Of a stretch of DNA of 29,434 nt, positions 1 to 7,325 are shown one piece after another. Numbering within the stretch: the stretch's first letter is position 1; each line of letters opens with the position of its first letter. The stretch lies in the UHGV virus genome UHGV-0114363; one strand, given 5' to 3'. A program made the position numbers and the translations under genes. This DNA is from a virus. The notes beneath the pieces were generated by a model, which searched no databases, had not been told where the DNA came from, and was given only the letters and a program-made list of their open reading frames with translations.

Positions 1-81
1 TTGCCCACCTCAATTTTAACTGATTATTGATATTGAAAACTCGTACTTTTAACTGATACAGATATTTAGGAAACCATAAAT

Positions 82-447
82 TTATTTGTCCAAGATTCTA
101 TCCATAATATTTCTTAGTTCTTGTCTGGTTGATTCTATTTTAGCAAGCAACGTTTTGATCAATGAGGGTGAAAAATCAACTGTGCGTGGATCGTTAGCTA
201 ACCACAGTTTAAGTAACCCACCAAGTCGACCAAGATCAGCATTTACTCGGCTAAGCTCTACAACCTGTTCAATATCTACAATAGACTCAACCTGATAACC
301 CATTGCTACTTTACGAATGAAGCTCGCTACACTTAAGCCAGATGCTTCTGCATTTTCCTGGATTTGCGCTTTTTCATCTGGCAAACAATAAACTTTAATT
401 GGTGTACTATTTTTTCTAGTCTGAGAAACGGTCATATCATTCTCCAT
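82..447 (-). CDS. NikA/MobC-like ribbon-helix-helix relaxosome accessory (mobilization) protein
   Basis: 121-aa ORF; segment KVYCLPDEKAQIQENAEASGLSVASFIRKVAMG...LGRLGGLLK resembles the RHH core of plasmid NikA/MobC-type oriT-binding proteins (recollection of R64 NikA pattern). A GAGGTG Shine-Dalgarno at the extreme left edge (minus sense) suggests the next gene, plausibly a relaxase, starts just off-window. Confidence 0.5.
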   Translation of the reverse strand: MENDMTVSQTRKNSTPIKVYCLPDEKAQIQENAEASGLSVASFIRKVAMGYQVESIVDIEQVVELSRVNADLGRLGGLLKLWLANDPRTVDFSPSLIKTLLAKIESTRQELRNIMDRILDK

Positions 448-515
448 ACAGGCGGTAGCCGATCAGCCTCGCAGAGCAGGACTCCGTTGAGCAGCCCAGC
501 TGCTAATAAGAGAAG

Positions 516-553
516 GTAAAGTAGAAGCACCGTTTACGGTGGGCCTACTTTAC
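516..553. repeat. Inverted repeat GTAAAGTAG / CTACTTTAC enclosing palindrome ACCGTTTACGGT; candidate oriT or operator element
   Basis: Perfect 9-bp arms at 516-524 and 545-553 with nested palindrome at 529-540; lies about 70 bp upstream of the NikA/MobC-like start codon; no flanking T-tract so not an intrinsic terminator. Confidence 0.4.
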
Positions 554-584
554 ATGTCCTGCCCTACATTTGCCGTTGTGAATC

Positions 585-623
585 TGTGTACGTATTGTGT
601 ATTCCTGTGTACTCAGTGTGTTT
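585..623. repeat. Four helically phased TGTGT(A/T) direct repeats (candidate protein-binding array)
   Basis: TGTGT cores start at 585, 596, 606 and 617 (spacing 11, 10, 11 bp) in the intergenic region between the AlpA-like and NikA/MobC-like genes. Confidence 0.4.
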
Positions 624-717
624 TCCTAAAGCATTTGTGCAGGATTAGTAGTGTAAAAATGTGCAGCATATGTGTTTATTGGAAGGGAAATTATTTGAAT
701 GACCCTAAGAAATATTT

Positions 718-1011
718 TTATTCTCGCGGCTTGGGTTTTGGCGGCCTGCCACGTTTCCTTTGAAACCTATTTATCTCTTTCGCTATATCGTCATTTTCTG
801 TCTTTGACTCAACAGATTTATCTATCCAATCCTTAACATCTTCTCTACGCCAGAGAAGACGTTTATTACCGGGAAGACGGCATCTTGGTGGAAGACATTT
901 TGGATTTCGCGTTGCATCACTGCGGATACTTTTTACAGTTTTCTTTAATGCAAAAGCCAACTCTTCAACGGTTATAAGTTCTGGCATAACTGATTTCATC
1001 GAAGAACCCAT
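718..1011 (-). CDS. AlpA-family helix-turn-helix regulator / excisionase-like protein with C-terminal AT-hook
   Basis: 97-aa ORF; LITVEELAFALKKTVKSIRS...LLWRREDVKDWI matches the AlpA/Xis-type HTH pattern; C-terminal KRGRPPKPKP is an AT-hook-like basic tail. Start could be 1011 or 999. Confidence 0.6.
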   Translation of the reverse strand: MGSSMKSVMPELITVEELAFALKKTVKSIRSDATRNPKCLPPRCRLPGNKRLLWRREDVKDWIDKSVESKTENDDIAKEINRFQRKRGRPPKPKPRE

Positions 1012-1033
1012 CTCTCAGTAGAAATTTGAGGAT

Positions 1034-1061
1034 TTTAGCGGCTAAAATTTTAGCCGCTAAA
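1034..1061. promoter_or_regulatory. 28-bp perfect palindrome TTTAGCGGCTAAAATTTTAGCCGCTAAA (candidate operator)
   Basis: Arms 1034-1047 and 1048-1061 are exact reverse complements; sits 23-50 bp upstream of the AlpA-like start codon. Confidence 0.5.
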
Positions 1062-1311
1062 GTTTGCTAACCAACGTTATGAATTGAGAATAATTAAAAC
1101 TTACTGGCAAAAAGAATAATGTCAACAGGATTTTTATTCATCGGATTTTTACTCCATATGAAATTGGTTTTATTGACCGATTTCTGAATGACACTAAGGT
1201 TTTAATAATTCCTTTAATCTTTTTGGTTATATAAAAGGTTAAAGATCAGGTTAGAGAGGTGTGGAAAAGCGATATATTCATTTGTATATTATGACAATTT
1301 TAAATTATATC

Positions 1312-1372
1312 CGTACCTCAAATGTCATGAAAGCGTACCTCATATGTCATAAAGGCGTACCTCATATGTCAT
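1312..1372. repeat. Three iteron-like direct repeats with 22-bp phase (core CGTACCTCA(A/T)ATGTCAT)
   Basis: 17-bp cores at 1312-1328, 1334-1350 and 1356-1372; copies 2 and 3 identical, copy 1 differs at one base; followed by several hundred bp of very AT-rich non-coding DNA. Confidence 0.6.
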
Positions 1373-1460
1373 ATAATAAAAAATAAGCAAACAAGTTATA
1401 CACAATATTATTCACAGAATCTGTGGATAAATACACAGATTATACATGATAAAATAGATT

Positions 1461-1659
1461 GTTTAGCTAAACTAAATAGCAATAAATAAAATGAAACAAA
1501 ATGTAAATAACAGAGAGTTGTAGATAACTTATAAATTTGGTTAGCTAACCTTTATAAGAAACACTGTTTGTAAAAGATTCATTTCTGACAACGGATATAT
1601 CGAAATTTAGTAAGTAAAATGCCACAGCTAAATCTTTTATATCATTTGTTTAGCTATAC
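1461..1659. promoter_or_regulatory. Three dispersed palindromic sites with TTAGCTA core (candidate operators)
   Basis: GTTTAGCTAAAC at 1461-1472 (perfect palindrome), GGTTAGCTAACC at 1539-1550 (perfect palindrome), GTTTAGCTATAC at 1648-1659 (one mismatch); the TTTAGC half-site also occurs in the 28-bp palindrome at 1034-1061. A CACAGAATCTGTG palindrome lies at 1413-1425. Confidence 0.45.
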
Positions 1660-1974
1660 TATTTTTACTAAGGGTTATGTATATCTAAACTACAAAAACA
1701 GCAATGCAAAAGATAAACGGGTAACAATCGTAGAAAAGCTTTGTTGCTGAGGGGTTACCCTCATTGGAAACCGGCTTGAGATAAGTATCATATGAGGATA
1801 TCAAATCCGACTGGTGAGGCCAGGTTTGATAATTTGAAGCGCTGGACGTAGCGTAGATGCCACAATAGAGGAGACAATAGTAAATTAAATTATAAGATAA
1901 ATGCAGATTTTTGTTTCGCTATGAAGTTATCACTGAAGATAAAGTATTCTAAGATAGATGAATGTGAGGTTGCC

Positions 1975-2235
1975 ATGACAACGATGAAAGCTAGACCCAG
2001 TTCTGTTGCGGATATTCTTTTAAATGAGTATTTGAAACCTTTAGCTATGTCTTCACGTGACTTAGCTAATTTGATGGGAGTACCTTATAGCAGAATTGAC
2101 GATATATTACGACACTCTAAAAATATAAGTAATAGAGAGGGGGAATTACTTTCTAAAATCTTCAATACTGATAGCGATTTTTGGATAAAACTTCAAGAAA
2201 ACTATATAAATCATACATGCAAATTCCATAAATAG
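1975..2235 (+). CDS. HigA-family antitoxin-like XRE helix-turn-helix protein (solitary)
   Basis: PSSVADILLNEYLKPLAMSSRDLANLMGVPYSRIDDILRHSKNISNREGELLSKIFNTDSDFWIKLQ matches the HigA-type HTH pattern; GAGGT Shine-Dalgarno 4 nt before the ATG at 1975. No toxin-sized ORF on either side. Confidence 0.6.
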   Translation: MTTMKARPSSVADILLNEYLKPLAMSSRDLANLMGVPYSRIDDILRHSKNISNREGELLSKIFNTDSDFWIKLQENYINHTCKFHK

Positions 2236-2499
2236 TGCATAAACGCTAACTTAAGGCATATATTATTTGTACTACGCCGTTGTATTAAAGAGAGATATCA
2301 AGCAACAAAAATCAACTATAATAGGTAAAAAATCAGTATGAAGGAATTATCACAATCTGCACGATGGTTCTAATATAAATTTAGTAAAATAAAACATAAA
2401 TCATTTCCGTATAAAAAGATGGCCAGGTCTTTATCATCGACCCAGCCAATTAGTAAAGGATTTTTCATTTCAAACTCATTAAACCTTAGGCATAAAACC

Positions 2500-4989
2500 T
2501 TAATGTTCAATATCTATTTGATTATCAATTTGAATAATGTTTTGAATCTCACTGTAAATATCAATGTTCTCATCTGGTACATCTATGCTAACCAATAAAC
2601 TATATTTAACATTGTTAATATAGCGATCCTGCGCAGTACGATATTTCCACCATCCACCAACAGGATAGACAGCGATAGTATTCATCTCTGTTAAATCTGC
2701 AGCACTGCCTTTCCAAGCATCTGAGTGTAATGAACCTCTAACTCTGAGTTGAGGCCCCAGAAACCATCCTGACGCATCTCCTTCAGGTCCATTGTATTCT
2801 TCATTATTCGCATTACGGTTTATCGAAGCACGGAAATTTTCAAGGGTCTGATTAGGTCTAATAACTGCAAATCTCAATCCATGAGATTGATACGAATATT
2901 GTCGTCTGAATCCTTTTTGACTTGGATTAGGTTCAATAAAATACGACAATGTGATTCTTAAAATAACATTTGTTTCTGGTGGTAGTAAGCGAAGAGCTTC
3001 TACGGGCCAAGGGAGTGAAAACAGATGCATTTCATTCAATGTAGGATCAGTAGAACCATCTCTTTTAAATGGGGTGATTTCCGACTGAGATATTAATGTA
3101 AGTGCATTTTCCGCACTATGCATTGCTCGATTTAAATTAGGTACTCCATAACCAACCATCCTTAATAAGCTTTCTTTAGCCGATTTTGGTGTCCCCTGTG
3201 CACGTTCTGTTCTATATCGTTCGTGCATACGACTAGTCCATCTTGCTGTATGAACAAGTAATCCCCTAATAGTTTCAGGCCAATATTCTGGGTACTGAGC
3301 CATTAGCATAGCAGCATGTTTTGATACTAGAGCACAGGCTGCGCTAGTATCTGAATTAACTTCAAACAATTGATTTGTTGCCCTGCCAGAGGTTGTGAGC
3401 AAAGATAATTCAATTGTATTTGTGATTTCATCACGGCTAGGTGATATAAGTTTGTTTCCGCCTTCCTCTACTAAATCTGGCTTATATGGGGCATGCTTTT
3501 TCCATCCCCAGGATACCGATGACCGAGATGACGGTGCAATATCTTCTGACATAGCGAAAGGAGACCAACCATCATATTCGCGGTCTGTATGGGTTGTTTT
3601 ATCAGTATACGCCCCTACAGTTAATGCATTCCAAGATTGAGCAGGATCTTCAATTTCAGCAAGAGTCACTGAATCCCAATAATCTAATTCTAAATTTGTA
3701 GGTTGAGAGTTACCCGCAGAAATTATAAATAATCTGCGGATATCATCCTCTAAACCAAAACTAAACTTGTCAATCTCTGCAGACCATGAGGACGGTTGGC
3801 CTCCAAGAGTATTAGGCTCTGCTGTCACAGCAAGCGAATAAACTCTGCGCCAGTTCGGGTTTTCCAGCTCCAGACGACTTGACGTTCCTGTAGTAATAGC
3901 TCCATAAAGATTAGGATCATTAGTAGCTCTTGGAGGTAGTATCCTTCCTGATTCGATATTGTACGGAATCGAAATGTCCTGATCGTTCAATAAAACAGAC
4001 AGGAAATCTCCATAAACACATAGTCCTGCTTGTCTGGAACCGTGGTCATTATAAGGCCTTTGATTATAATCATCGAAAAGTGGCCAAGATATGTCCCAAG
4101 CAGCTGCCAGTGATGAGTTAGTAAATCTAGATAATAGTGGATTATTGTAGTTAACACCTGTATCTAATATACAAACAGAAACATCAGCTTCATTGTTACG
4201 CGTAATTCTTGCAGCAACATTTTCTGCCCACTGATGCTGTTCTGTAGGTAAGGAATTAACTATAACTGATATATCATCCCTCGCTGATCTTATCTCTTTT
4301 AAATTAGATATTAATTCAGGACAAACTTTTAATCTCGATAGACTCGTACGGATAAGAACAACAGTAGTATCGAAAAAATTAATAGAAGTATTCCCGAGCC
4401 TTCCATTAATTCTTTCGCATAAACGCCGAGCAATATTTAGCACATCCTCCTTATTACCCTTAAGCCAAAGCTCAAACCACTTTTCAACACCGTGATCATC
4501 CGGAATAAGATCTTTTTTATCTGTCCAGAAAGAAGTTATATCTGCTAACTCGATATTTTGTATGCTATCAATTAACAAATGATTTCTAGGGAACTCGATA
4601 CCATCCTTCGATGGATTCAAATAGTCATTTATTTTTTTAGTGAATTTAGTTCTGTCATTTTCATTAATGTATATAATCGCAGTTTCACGATTATTTGATT
4701 TAACTAAAGAACAAAGCTTGAAATAAGTATTATCGATTTTATCTATAGGAAGATCGCATTGTTCAAAACTGATTAGCCTAACATAAATCCCTTTTTCATC
4801 AGTAACAGGGGGAAGCCTCGGTCTTTCATCATAATGATTCAATATACGGCTATACTGATTTAGTAATGATATACCATGTACCGCTCGATCACGAGCTGGG
4901 ACTTGGGGACTACGACCATTGCTCCTAGAGCGATAGTTTTCGGGGGAAACATAGCCGTTTAATAAAATATGCCTCTTGTTGGTAGTCAT
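2500..4989 (-). CDS. Subtilisin-like serine peptidase (S8 family), 829 aa, with extra N- and C-terminal domains
   Basis: Catalytic residues in canonical subtilase order: Asp in VCILDTGVN (about residue 276), His in YNDHGSRQ (316), oxyanion Asn in FIISAGNSQ (427), Ser in NSDTSAACALV (549); ALTVGAYT motif present. AGGGA Shine-Dalgarno overlaps the 3' end of the upstream ATPase gene (8-nt gap). Confidence 0.8.
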   Translation of the reverse strand: MTTNKRHILLNGYVSPENYRSRSNGRSPQVPARDRAVHGISLLNQYSRILNHYDERPRLPPVTDEKGIYVRLISFEQCDLPIDKIDNTYFKLCSLVKSNNRETAIIYINENDRTKFTKKINDYLNPSKDGIEFPRNHLLIDSIQNIELADITSFWTDKKDLIPDDHGVEKWFELWLKGNKEDVLNIARRLCERINGRLGNTSINFFDTTVVLIRTSLSRLKVCPELISNLKEIRSARDDISVIVNSLPTEQHQWAENVAARITRNNEADVSVCILDTGVNYNNPLLSRFTNSSLAAAWDISWPLFDDYNQRPYNDHGSRQAGLCVYGDFLSVLLNDQDISIPYNIESGRILPPRATNDPNLYGAITTGTSSRLELENPNWRRVYSLAVTAEPNTLGGQPSSWSAEIDKFSFGLEDDIRRLFIISAGNSQPTNLELDYWDSVTLAEIEDPAQSWNALTVGAYTDKTTHTDREYDGWSPFAMSEDIAPSSRSSVSWGWKKHAPYKPDLVEEGGNKLISPSRDEITNTIELSLLTTSGRATNQLFEVNSDTSAACALVSKHAAMLMAQYPEYWPETIRGLLVHTARWTSRMHERYRTERAQGTPKSAKESLLRMVGYGVPNLNRAMHSAENALTLISQSEITPFKRDGSTDPTLNEMHLFSLPWPVEALRLLPPETNVILRITLSYFIEPNPSQKGFRRQYSYQSHGLRFAVIRPNQTLENFRASINRNANNEEYNGPEGDASGWFLGPQLRVRGSLHSDAWKGSAADLTEMNTIAVYPVGGWWKYRTAQDRYINNVKYSLLVSIDVPDENIDIYSEIQNIIQIDNQIDIEH

Positions 4990-4997
4990 TTCATCCC

Positions 4998-5984
4998 TTA
5001 TTGTCTACTTTCTTGCCTACGCTTTATAGCCTTTACTAACAAATCGGTTGTAATATTGTTTGCATTATAAAGCACTGATTCTTTGGCAGCATCTTCACTT
5101 GCTCGCGTGATCTCCGCTGCACTTAGACCTGAAGCACTATCAATGATCTCACTCCAAAATAAATTACCGAGGTCAAAGACAGCGAGTCTCTGTTCAATAA
5201 GATTCCTGATTAGATTATCCTCAGGCCTTGTGAACGGTATAATATCGTCAAATCGTCTATATAAGGCGCGATCTAAAAGCTCTGGATGATTGGTTGCAGC
5301 TAAAACTATGCTCTCAGAATCATCCTGCTCTACAAACATTAAAAAAGAATTTAAGACCCTACGAATTTCTCCAACGTCATTCTGAGCGCCACGCTGAGTT
5401 CCTATAGCATCGAACTCGTCAAAAAAATATACAGCTCTTGTTTGCCGTATGTGGTCAAAAATTAAACGCAGCTTAGCTGCAGTTTCACCCATATAGCGAG
5501 TGATTAGATTATCTAAGACGACTGTATAAAGTGGTAGCTTTAACTCTGTAGCAATGACTGATGCGGACATTGTCTTACCAGTACCGGGAGGACCAGTGAA
5601 AAGAATTTTTCTTCTTGGAATAAGCCCAAACTCAGAAAGTTTATCTTTCTGTTTTTGTTCAAGCAGAACCTGATTCAATCTTTCCCTAACGCTTCCAGAA
5701 ATCACCAGATCTTGAAGATGTACTGGCTTGTTCGTTTGCTCAAGTAACCCCTTAAGATCACCATCAGGCTGCTTAACAAATGGTGTAAGTCGTTTTTCAA
5801 CTAAACCTACAGAACTCGTTGTTTTCTGATTTTTATCAACTAAGTTTTTTATATCATTAGCAAGCTTATGATGACCTTGCCTTGCTTCCTTAGCTGCCAC
5901 CTGCAAAGCAATAGAAAAGAAACGCTGATCATCACGATCAACGTGGCTTTTCAATAAAGCTTTGATCTGCTCTGCAGTAGCCAT
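4998..5984 (-). CDS. AAA+ ATPase (classical AAA clade), 328 aa
   Basis: Walker A GPPGTGKT (131-138), Walker B VYFFDEFD (about 186-192), sensor-1 LAATNHPELLD (about 229-238) and RRFD (243-246); roughly 100-aa helical N-terminal region; first gene of a two-gene operon with the S8 peptidase. Confidence 0.85.
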   Translation of the reverse strand: MATAEQIKALLKSHVDRDDQRFFSIALQVAAKEARQGHHKLANDIKNLVDKNQKTTSSVGLVEKRLTPFVKQPDGDLKGLLEQTNKPVHLQDLVISGSVRERLNQVLLEQKQKDKLSEFGLIPRRKILFTGPPGTGKTMSASVIATELKLPLYTVVLDNLITRYMGETAAKLRLIFDHIRQTRAVYFFDEFDAIGTQRGAQNDVGEIRRVLNSFLMFVEQDDSESIVLAATNHPELLDRALYRRFDDIIPFTRPEDNLIRNLIEQRLAVFDLGNLFWSEIIDSASGLSAAEITRASEDAAKESVLYNANNITTDLLVKAIKRRQESRQ

Positions 5985-6448
5985 AACCCCTCATACTCCC
6001 TTGTTCTCTTGTTGCAAAGTTTACTATAAATTCATTTAGTTCGACATCGTTACCTACCTGCTCATTACAGGAAAGTAATACCTTCATGAGCGTATCATCA
6101 ATGATCAAAGTGTAATCAAACACCTAGGCATAGTACCTTCACTACGTGAACTGTATCACTCATTGTTATGTAACCTGAGTGTCCCTTTCTGGCACTTAGC
6201 TCTATCGGATAATGTATTTAAGCTGTTAATTTATAAGATTTTTCATCACTAAACTGTCTTTCATGCAACGCATCGATAAGGTCAACACATTACGTTTATA
6301 AGGAAGTAGTTTGTTTAGCGTAATGATGCAAATGCTGACCAATTAGCTTTGCCACAATTTTGCCACACCTACAACGCGCAAAATTGCACATTAGTGTTGA
6401 ACAAAGCAAAATACTGCAATAGTAACTTGATGATTTTACGAGAAAAGA

Positions 6449-6494
6449 TGGTGCCGATAATAGGAGTCGAACCTACGACCTTCGCATTACGAAT
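6449..6494 (-). other. Partial tRNA-Thr(CGU) 3' end (46 nt): anticodon loop through CCA; att core repeat
   Basis: Minus-strand sequence ATTCGTAATGCGAAGGTCGTAGGTTCGACTCCTATTATCGGCACCA has a CGT anticodon loop, GGTTCGACTCC T-arm and terminal CCA; no D-arm or 5' acceptor half follows, so it is a 3' fragment typical of an integrase att duplication. Matches my recollection of enterobacterial thrW. Confidence 0.7.
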
Positions 6495-6655
6495 CTGTAG
6501 CACCAATCATAACTATCTGTTTTAGCAAGCATTAACCGCATTCACTAAGTTATAGTTGATGGCACAAACAGAAAGTTGATGCATGATGTTTTCATGCGTA
6601 TGTCACAAATACGGCACAACAATCTTCAAATATGTAGACACACATCCACAGGAGA

Positions 6656-6691
6656 GCACAAAGCCTTGCAATACAGTGCAAAGCTTTGTGC
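6656..6691. terminator. Long hairpin (15-bp stem, one mismatch, 6-nt loop) downstream of the tail fiber assembly gene
   Basis: GCACAAAGCCTTGCA-ATACAG-TGCAAAGCTTTGTGC; only a weak T-run follows (GTTTTGT at about 6697-6703) so terminator function is uncertain. Confidence 0.35.
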
Positions 6692-6719
6692 GTATCAGTT
6701 TTGTCCTGTGCGCCGGATG

Positions 6720-7325
6720 TCATCTGGCCTGAACTTCCGGAGGCGTAGGCCATTCAATATCCGGTGCGCTGGCGGTATCAACGCCCTCCAGCGCATCCAG
6801 ATAATCAAGCCAGGCATTATATTGTTCTTTTTCTGCGTCCTTCAGGCGACCCATTGCTGCTTTACCAGGCCATTGCTTACCATTCATAAAGTCATTGGCC
6901 TGGCTAATCAGCGCCTGTAGTTTTGTTGCCGCCACAGAAATATCATATGCGCGCTGAGCTTCGGGATCGGCAACCCATTTATTACCATCCCATTTATCAA
7001 ACTTTGTAGTTGGTGCTTCAAAAGTAAAGCCTTCACGCAACGGTCCAATATATTCGATAGTCACCGGCTTCCCGTTACTGGTGGTGTATGCTGTTTCTCC
7101 ACGATGGTCTTCTTTAAGCACCCACTCAGATCCAGAAAAAATAAATACCTTCCCTCCTGCTTCGGCCCCTGGTTCTATCGCCGTAGAGCATCCGGGCATA
7201 CTGACACCGATGTTAATAAACTCGTCAGACCATCCCATATATTCAGAAGTCACAGCGTCGTAGTAATAACAGCGGATTTCACCCGGTTCTGTTGCCAGTC
7301 CGTTTACATCGAAAACAGGTTTCAT
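6720..7325 (-). CDS. Tail fiber assembly protein (Tfa)
   Basis: C-terminal EKEQYNAWLDYLDALEGVDTASAPDIEWPTPP is the conserved Tfa C-terminal signature; start overlaps the fiber gene stop. Confidence 0.8.
   Translation of the reverse strand: MKPVFDVNGLATEPGEIRCYYYDAVTSEYMGWSDEFINIGVSMPGCSTAIEPGAEAGGKVFIFSGSEWVLKEDHRGETAYTTSNGKPVTIEYIGPLREGFTFEAPTTKFDKWDGNKWVADPEAQRAYDISVAATKLQALISQANDFMNGKQWPGKAAMGRLKDAEKEQYNAWLDYLDALEGVDTASAPDIEWPTPPEVQAR

Follow-up and report, generated by a model that had tools for sequence, protein, structure and literature searches.

Exact KorB and KorA operator sequences of IncP-1 plasmids on a mobilizable Escherichia coli island, probably read in trans by a helper plasmid

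Among the major carriers of multidrug resistance are the IncP-1 plasmids, for which KorB serves as both master repressor and partition protein. KorA and KorB are global regulators of IncP-1 plasmids (PMC2680271). KorB, a ParB-family clamp that depends on cytidine triphosphate (CTP), binds the operator OB, TTTAGC(C/G)GCTAAA, and KorA binds the operator OA, GTTTAGCTAAAC (PMC2680271, PMC11790492). KorB loads at OB and slides along DNA, and KorA bound at OA locks KorB, which results in long-range repression. Exact copies of both operators are found near the start of the virus genome record UHGV-0114363 (29,434 nucleotides, the whole of which is referred to here as the window), in a segment that is the right-hand part of a small integrative mobilizable element (IME) of Escherichia coli inserted at tRNA-Thr/proA.

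IncP-dependent islands carry resistance genes, as in GIsul2, and many defense systems. Those already known are GIsul2 and the IncP island (PMC5704250) and the PIMEs (bioRxiv 10.64898/2026.01.12.698999). According to the January 2026 preprint on the latter (bioRxiv 10.64898/2026.01.12.698999), PIMEs excise and replicate only in the presence of an IncP plasmid, the way in which they sense it being stated as unknown, and amplification of the plasmid pB10 is reduced when a PIME replicates. The preprint makes no mention of KorA, KorB, TrfA, or operators, PMC5704250 makes none of KorB, and the searchable open-access literature yielded no description of OB or OA on a chromosomal island. The closest functional parallel is SGI1, which carries two mimics of the IncC plasmid parS site, binds the ParB protein of its helper, stabilizes itself, and expels the helper (PMC10954446). 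The KorB and KorA operators themselves are textbook material.

The segment TTTAGCGGCTAAAATTTTAGCCGCTAAA at positions 1034 to 1061 had been described in an earlier note on this DNA as an exact 28-bp palindrome, and a palindrome search of the 29.4-kb window confirmed that it equals its own reverse complement; it is not extendable by even one base and is by far the longest perfect palindrome of the window, the runner-up being 14 bp long. The 28-bp block resolves into two abutting 13-bp palindromes of the form TTTAGC-N-GCTAAA, whose centers lie 15 bp apart and each of which is an exact copy of OB (C or G at the center, with N tolerated). Three sites of the OA type follow downstream:

Positions 1034 to 1046, no strand assigned: OB-1, exact KorB-operator 13-mer TTTAGCGGCTAAA, the copy closer to a gene for a 93-amino-acid (93-aa) protein
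Positions 1049 to 1061, no strand assigned: OB-2, exact KorB-operator 13-mer TTTAGCCGCTAAA
Positions 1461 to 1472, no strand assigned: OA-1, perfect palindrome GTTTAGCTAAAC, exact KorA-operator 12-mer
Positions 1539 to 1550, no strand assigned: OA-2, GGTTAGCTAACC, a perfect 12-bp palindrome and symmetric two-mismatch variant of the KorA operator
Positions 1648 to 1659, no strand assigned: OA-3, GTTTAGCTATAC, which is GTTTAGCTAAAC with one mismatch, degenerate in the lineage of the window

With at most one mismatch allowed, TTTAGCNGCTAAA has 2 matches in the window (0.07 expected), a number reached in none of 100 shuffles, and chance is excluded for sites of this type. The oligonucleotide ATTTTAGCGGCTAAAAG, used as OB in published KorB assays (PMC11790492), matches positions 1032 to 1047. 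The 28-bp palindrome is thus probably a pair of abutting KorB operators, binding of KorB being predicted from the identity of the sites. For GTTTAGCTAAAC with up to two mismatches, there are 4 matches, all of them within 1461 to 1690, compared to 0.92 expected, and again none of 100 shuffles reaches that count. Together with its flanks, OA-1 reads ATTGTTTAGCTAAACT, a 16-mer that is identical to the one at the trfA/ssb promoter of pCFSA664-2, an enterobacterial IncP-1-like plasmid.

The proposal of the earlier note that these palindromes are operator-type sites for protein binding is supported. That note had further assigned the palindrome, together with palindromes at 1461, 1539, and 1648, to what looked like a single family of operators for one dimeric regulator. 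Indeed, the sites at 1461 and 1539 are perfect 12-bp palindromes, and the arms TTTAGC and GCTAAA are present in both site types; however, the sequence at 1648 is not a palindrome, and the arms are separated by a 1-bp spacer in the 13-mers but overlap by 2 bp in the 12-mers. Because of this difference in spacing, the sites are of two kinds rather than one, and they match, letter for letter, the operators of two different IncP-1 proteins, KorB and KorA.

Conservation was assessed in an alignment of the interval between the 93-aa gene and a downstream HigA-like gene, comprising five E. coli variants (down to ∼75% identity) and two Enterobacter species that were added later. In this seven-sequence alignment, invariant columns make up 89% of the OB pair, 94% of OA-1, 72% of the adjacent coding sequence, 71% of the block at 1062 to 1110, and 26 to 54% of most spacers that separate the motifs. 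In elements that are ∼75% identical, no intergenic blocks are better conserved than the OB pair and the first OA, and the OB and OA sites show purifying conservation. A lack of such conservation in related islands had been named in the earlier note as evidence against operators; this objection fails because the palindromes persist in related islands down to ∼75% identity. The arms of the OB pair are invariant save for a single A-to-T change in AZ147. The central bases are G and C in the lineage of the window, C and C in ES2, 2017.01.04CC, AZ147, and Enterobacter quasiroggenkampii, and G and T in STEC1575 and Enterobacter vonholyi; the center thus varies freely on the islands, as it does on pCFSA664-2. 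Because the relatives keep both 13-bp units with other central bases, the perfect 28-bp symmetry is an accident of this lineage, the unit under selection being the 13-mer. Among the OA sites, the relatives keep (TT)GTTTAGCTAAAC(AA) at the first and third positions and GGTTAGCTAACC at the second, although OA-2 is retained in most rather than all of them. At the OA-3 position, the relatives carry a perfect TTGTTTAGCTAAACAA ∼40 to 90 bp upstream of the start of the HigA-like gene (∼300 bp in AZ147); in the window, the degenerate OA-3 lies 316 bp from that gene.

E. coli ECONIH4 shares the first 6,494 bases of the window at 100% identity, as do many other genomes of the species. The ECONIH4-type gene order is trbL, a small open reading frame (ORF) in the trbK position, trbJ, traJ, the 93-aa gene, a gap of ∼950 bp, the HigA-family gene, an S8 peptidase with an AAA ATPase, and the tRNA; int and trbJ/trbL lie beyond the left edge of the window in the identical copies. 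Beyond these genes, an intact relative in strain ES2 has only a tyrosine integrase and a few small ORFs, so the element carries no more than fragments of a P-type transfer system. The features of the island within the window, apart from the operators, are as follows:

Positions 82 to 447, minus strand: traJ, encoding an oriT-binding ribbon-helix-helix protein (Pfam NikA-like, 4.7e-24; NCBIfam TraJ, 2.9e-48)
Positions 450 to 580, no strand assigned: oriT, with the inverted repeat GTAAAGTAG (516 to 524) / CTACTTTAC (545 to 553)
Positions 718 to 999, minus strand: gene for the 93-aa protein (termed AlpA-like in the earlier note), given with the RefSeq start; excisionase/MerR-type winged helix
Positions 1195 to 1432, no strand assigned: putative mini-oriV of the IncP-1 type, consisting of a conserved AT-rich block (1195 to 1262), three iterons, and a DnaA-box cluster
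Positions 1975 to 2235, plus strand: solitary XRE regulator of the HigA family, heading the cargo (NCBIfam TIGR02607, 1.4e-14)

The segment from 450 to 580 is 90 to 92% identical (blastn) to the oriT of many 41- to 50-kb conjugative IncP-1-like enterobacterial plasmids; its 9-bp inverted repeat is followed 8 nt further on by the nic-like ATGTCCTG|CCC, and positions 465 to 564 match the Rfam family traJ-II (RF01760) on the minus strand with 87 bits. In pCFSA664-2, whose oriT core is 92% identical to that of the island, TrfA (PF07042), KorA (PF16509), IncC, and KorB (PF08535 and PF06613) are all encoded. This plasmid has 11 exact copies of OB, the central base being G, C, T, or A, and 2 of OA; the latter lie over the −10 elements of the promoters of trfA/ssb and korA, in both cases with an OB 3 to 4 bp upstream of the −35. 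R751 has the same site types. On the element and in its ES2 relative, none of the proteins scanned with Pfam matches KorA, KorB, or TrfA, and none of the three genes is annotated. Since korB is missing from the scanned proteins, KorB binding would have to occur in trans. The helper is likely an IncP-1-type plasmid of the pCFSA664-2 kind that shares its oriT with the island, and we consider it probable that the OB and OA sites are cis-acting sites of an IncP-dependent island that are read in trans by such a plasmid.

Between the two site types lies a third plasmid-like component. The three TrfA-type iterons have 22-bp spacing (cores at 1316 to 1327, 1338 to 1349, and 1360 to 1371), one of them reading CCTCAAATGTCA and two reading CCTCATATGTCA; a perfect DnaA box occupies 1422 to 1430 on the minus strand, with four one-mismatch boxes nearby. 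The oriV iterons of pCFSA664-2 (CCTCAAGTGTCA, CTTCATATGTCA, and CCTCAAATGTCA) also have 22-bp spacing and belong to the same sequence family as the repeats at 1316 to 1371, and the segment from 1237 to 1371 is 70% identical to the flank of the plasmid oriV (1968 to 2101) in inverted orientation. Iterons, DnaA boxes, and an AT-rich region as in an IncP-1 oriV are present in the window, but there are only three iterons, trfA was not found, and no rep gene was annotated or detected by Pfam on the element or on the ES2 relative. The earlier note had regarded these ∼900 bp as a divergent control region. A simple control region of this kind is not supported: the iterons and DnaA boxes also lie within the interval, which is better described as two OB sites, a putative rep-less mini-oriV, and three OA sites. 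Its GC content is 31%.

Compared to RK2, RP4, and R751, the island has identical TTTAGC(N)GCTAAA and GTTTAGCTAAAC operators in several copies per element, shares one OB copy in the 5′ end of trbJ, and resembles the layout of long-range KorB-KorA corepression in having OB next to a −35-like hexamer and OA at a distance. Unlike these plasmids, it is chromosomal and integrative; korA, korB, incC, and trfA were not found on it; and its OA sites lack a convincing placement over a −10. Its OB sites abut, a similar tandem having been seen in only a few plasmids, such as the IncP plasmid pP9014, where it lies upstream of trbB. The OB in trbJ, a third exact copy located 53 bp to the left of the window start (L001 13348), is at the same place in the island, pCFSA664-2, and R751 (L001 13348; L088 33570; L093 25579).

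With the family of PIMEs, GIsul2, and the IncP island, the element shares int, an AlpA/Xis-type regulator, traJ, trbJ-(trbK)-trbL, an IncP-like oriT, and a large defense cargo. Of the components by which PIMEs are defined (integrase, alpA, replicase, trbJ, and trbL, along with an oriT resembling that of the IncP helper), int, trbJ, and trbL are present in identical or related copies of the island and the oriT at 450 to 580 shows the 90 to 92% identity noted above; a replicase was not found. Unlike PIMEs, the island is inserted at tRNA-Thr rather than guaA, lacks a replicase gene and luxR, has a regulator that does not belong to the Pfam AlpA family, and combines TrfA-type iterons with the absence of a rep gene of its own. 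Exact OB sites are shared with guaA-type islands of the published PIME1 architecture, which have four each. In these guaA-type islands, an exact OB precedes TrfA-type iterons, two in L089 (14387 to 14465) and one in L090 (14308 to 14390); in L089, they are distinct from GGGCCGTTACAGC-like repeats that lie beside the rep genes and resemble iterons belonging to that island itself. Like SGI1, the element is a mobilizable island with two copies of the ParB-binding site of its presumed helper and no ParB gene found. The differences are that the plasmid family and the site sequence are other than those of the SGI1/IncC pair, that the ParB homolog is also a global transcriptional repressor, and that KorA- and TrfA-type sites are present as well.

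How the sites could work is suggested by their positions relative to two back-to-back promoters, both of which were read from the sequence:

Positions 1047 to 1074, minus strand: predicted leftward promoter of the 93-aa gene, TTGGTT-16-TAAAAT, with its −10 and +1 inside the OB pair
Positions 1064 to 1091, plus strand: predicted rightward promoter, TTGCTA-16-GAGAAT, beginning 2 bp past OB-2

The hexamers of the leftward promoter are conserved in the relatives, its −35 matching the consensus at 3 of 6 positions. Proximal OB sites are located 4 to 10 bp upstream of a −35 and distal ones from 45 bp to >1 kb away from the target promoter; the predicted rightward promoter, at 2 bp from OB-2, would resemble the OB-proximal layout of the trfA and korA promoters of the plasmids. 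Binding in vivo, the promoters concerned, and the direction in which the island life cycle would be influenced are inferences rather than observations. KorB would bind the OB pair and load as a CTP-dependent clamp, as is established for this sequence on RK2. Because the OB pair overlaps or adjoins the back-to-back predicted promoters, KorB would repress transcription on both sides, that is, of the 93-aa gene and traJ-trbJKL on the left and from the rightward promoter. At the three OA sites, 400 to 600 bp away, KorA would capture the sliding KorB, which would silence the mini-oriV interval and, in the relatives, the promoter of the HigA-like gene. The OB sites could also be centromere-like, in which case the excised island would use the IncC/KorB partition machinery or compete with the plasmid for it, and the iterons might either allow TrfA-dependent replication or titrate TrfA.

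Several observations weigh against this scheme. The promoter assignments are weak, a consensus scan having called neither of the two, the leftward one because of its poor −35. At OA-1, the −10 sequence TAAACT is the same as on the plasmid, but upstream of it there is just a weak −35, ATGATA, with a 16-nt spacer, and none is convincing at OA-3; sequence inspection thus revealed no good −35 upstream of either site. In the window, moreover, OA-3 is degenerate and OA-2 is a variant. The 15-bp distance between the OB centers leaves simultaneous occupancy by two KorB dimers in question. Because trbJ, oriT, and oriV are plasmid-derived by descent, some of the sites could have been inherited rather than selected. 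Finally, the sign of the coupling is at odds with what is reported for PIMEs, in that KorA and KorB repress whereas helper plasmids induce. A double-negative circuit through the HigA-like gene, or antisilencing by KorB clamps, may possibly reconcile repression with induction.

The inheritance of sites by descent also underlies the first of the alternatives, namely that all of them are inert, unused leftovers of a piece of an IncP-1 plasmid taken up during formation of the island. We regard this as unlikely. It is true that traJ, trbJ-trbL, oriT, and the segment with the iterons clearly stem from plasmids and that the third OB, inside trbJ, sits at the same place in R751 and pCFSA664-2. However, the OB pair and the OA sites are located in DNA with no detectable plasmid homology: a blastn search of positions 450 to 1700 against plasmids matched oriT only, a search at word size 7 added the oriV segment and the bare motifs, and positions 580 to 1700, with oriT/traJ and the oriV segment excepted, showed nothing but the motifs themselves in common with plasmids by blastn. 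The sites are also the most conserved intergenic blocks at ∼75% identity, free drift in them being limited to the functionally free central base, and exact AT-rich OB 13-mers persist in GC-rich islands of Burkholderiales.

The earlier note had instead named the two neighboring helix-turn-helix (HTH) proteins as candidate binders, which would make the sites operators of the island's own regulators, the 93-aa protein acting on its own gene through the palindrome and the HigA-like protein binding the GTTTAGCTAAAC sites. HigA antitoxins commonly autoregulate through palindromes, the palindrome falls within the leader or promoter region of the gene for the 93-aa protein, OA-3 is close to the start of the HigA-like gene in the relatives (∼40 to 90 bp upstream, ∼300 bp in AZ147), and the AT-hook of the 93-aa protein, an invariant C-terminal RGRP, could fit the A4T4 junction. 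The fold class of this protein, on the other hand, that of Xis and BldC, typically binds direct repeats. Its AlphaFold2 model (pLDDT, 74) matches RdfS, Pukovnik Xis, BldC, and GIsul2 Xis, and the family alignment shows a nearly invariant DNA-binding core besides the AT-hook. The AlpA-like label therefore holds at the level of fold but not of family: the protein has no significant Pfam or NCBIfam family, Phage_AlpA (PF05930) giving no match at an E value of ≤10 and HTH_17 one of just 0.23, in contrast to the PIME1 regulator, which scores 6e-13 against Phage_AlpA; a PDB sequence search with the profile of the 93-aa family returned spurious ETV6 matches only.

Among 80 collected loci, each encoding a homolog of the 93-aa protein, OB is absent upstream of the homolog in 78, the exceptions being two Enterobacter loci, and this despite the nearly invariant DNA-binding core. 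Autoregulation by the 93-aa protein was rejected as the function of the palindrome, since the site is found upstream in just those two loci. The HigA-like gene keeps its position in the relatives, yet the sequence is only 43 to 49% identical and its HTH region varies between variants while OA is invariant. Because 78 of the 80 loci have no OB upstream and the HigA-like protein varies while OA does not, plasmid proteins acting in trans are favored over the local ones. Given also that known proteins other than these two have operators identical to the sites and that the OA-3 of the window is degenerate and 316 bp away from higA, control by the two local regulators is quite improbable. The position of the palindrome relative to the 93-aa gene needs correction as well. 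Instead of the 23 bp upstream of the start codon given in the earlier note, there are 22 nt to the ATG of the longest ORF (1011), which has no counterpart in the relatives, and 34 nt to the start at 999, which is annotated in RefSeq and conserved.

A structural role of the DNA or RNA, such as a cruciform or hairpin that serves as a terminator, attenuator, recombination site, or oriT inverted repeat, can be set aside as highly improbable, since the strong single-stranded DNA fold (−12.4 kcal/mol; z = −4.1) is what any two abutting palindromes necessarily give and the mobilization genes nearby have their real oriT at 450 to 580, whereas the palindrome has no T-run on either strand, no call in a terminator scan, no Rfam match, and no conservation of the full 28-bp symmetry or compensatory changes in the relatives. 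A terminator or attenuator hairpin was ruled out on the grounds of the missing T-run and the nonconserved symmetry. The oriT repeat was rejected because oriT, with an inverted repeat of its own, is located elsewhere by plasmid identity, the traJ-II match (Rfam gave nothing else in positions 1 to 6800), and the nic-like site.

Exact OB sites are not confined to this island and its near relatives. They were found in 27 of the 80 distant loci with homologs of the 93-aa protein, amounting to ∼40 sites in 595 kb compared to 0.04 expected; the carriers include Paraburkholderia, Caballeronia, Cupriavidus, Pandoraea, Pseudomonas, Yersinia, and others. A more tentative proposal, which we hold to be possible but somewhat doubtful, is that the superfamily of GIsul2, the IncP island, and PIMEs senses and exploits its IncP-1 helper through KorB, KorA, and possibly TrbA, with TrfA firing the origin of a rep-less satellite and OB hijacking or poisoning IncC/KorB partition. 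Island genes would then be timed either by repression of an island repressor or by KorB clamps that displace silencers from the 31%-GC region. If this were true, it would account both for induction that depends on the helper and for the fall in helper copy number, as reported for PIMEs. In any case, exact KorB and KorA operators and TrfA-type iterons on islands without the cognate genes offer a concrete and cheaply testable hypothesis for helper sensing. It would extend the strategy of stealing the helper's ParB site, as in SGI1/IncC, to a second, broad-host-range plasmid family, and OB 13-mers outside plasmids would provide a sequence signature for finding such islands.

Two of the distant relatives were examined for replication genes, and in both a rep gene directly follows the homolog of the 93-aa gene, TrfA-like in Yersinia (L074, 4326 to 5213) and RPA-type in Paraburkholderia (L009, 4346 to 5323). 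The E. coli tRNA-Thr island appears to have lost, or never to have had, such a gene. In another set of these loci, from Burkholderiales and Rhodocyclales (L008, L020, L026, L028, L033, L047, L050, L057, L060, L071, L072, and L076), a conserved leader of the form CCGCGGACTCATCCG-hairpin-CGGAG is located ∼110 bp upstream of the 93-aa homolog, where it may act as a binding site or form a structured leader.

Some further motifs were noted in and around the OA region. The 17-mer ACAACGGATATATCGAA at 1588 to 1604 is invariant in all seven aligned elements; its core, GGATATATCG, is one mismatch away from CGATATATCG, which is itself found ∼60 bp upstream of trbB in R751, with similar sequences upstream of trbB in two further plasmids. 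By this comparison, GGATATATCG may be a TrbA operator. A second family of small palindromes, GTTAGCTAAC, is represented in the window at 193 to 202 (inside traJ) and 1540 to 1549 (at OA-2), with two further copies in the ES2 oriT region (L002 3074 and 3093); these may be weak KorA sites or sites of another protein. At 1657 to 1660, the DNA homology that links the window to many other copies of the island in E. coli ends exactly inside OA-3, and to the right of this break the HigA-like gene and the cargo differ between island variants, so that it looks like a breakpoint of module exchange at a common operator. The ∼300 bp between OA-3 and the HigA-like gene (1660 to 1960) have no counterpart in the relatives compared, and no convincing ORF or Rfam match was found there.

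The cargo at 2500 to 5984 on the minus strand encodes an S8 subtilase of 829 aa together with an AAA ATPase of 328 aa and looks like a defense system; at the same place, the relatives carry ABC-three-component proteins, a DEAD-box helicase, and a SIR2 protein, among others. The remainder of the window, 6495 to 29434, is a prophage with genes for tail fiber, baseplate, tape measure, sheath, capsid, portal, terminase, and Rha. It is inserted within tRNA-Thr at position 6494, which explains why a tRNA search at 5900 to 7000 found none; the truncated tRNA (6449 to 6494) adjoins the island, and because the prophage sits within this island-adjacent gene, island and phage are in tandem at one tRNA.

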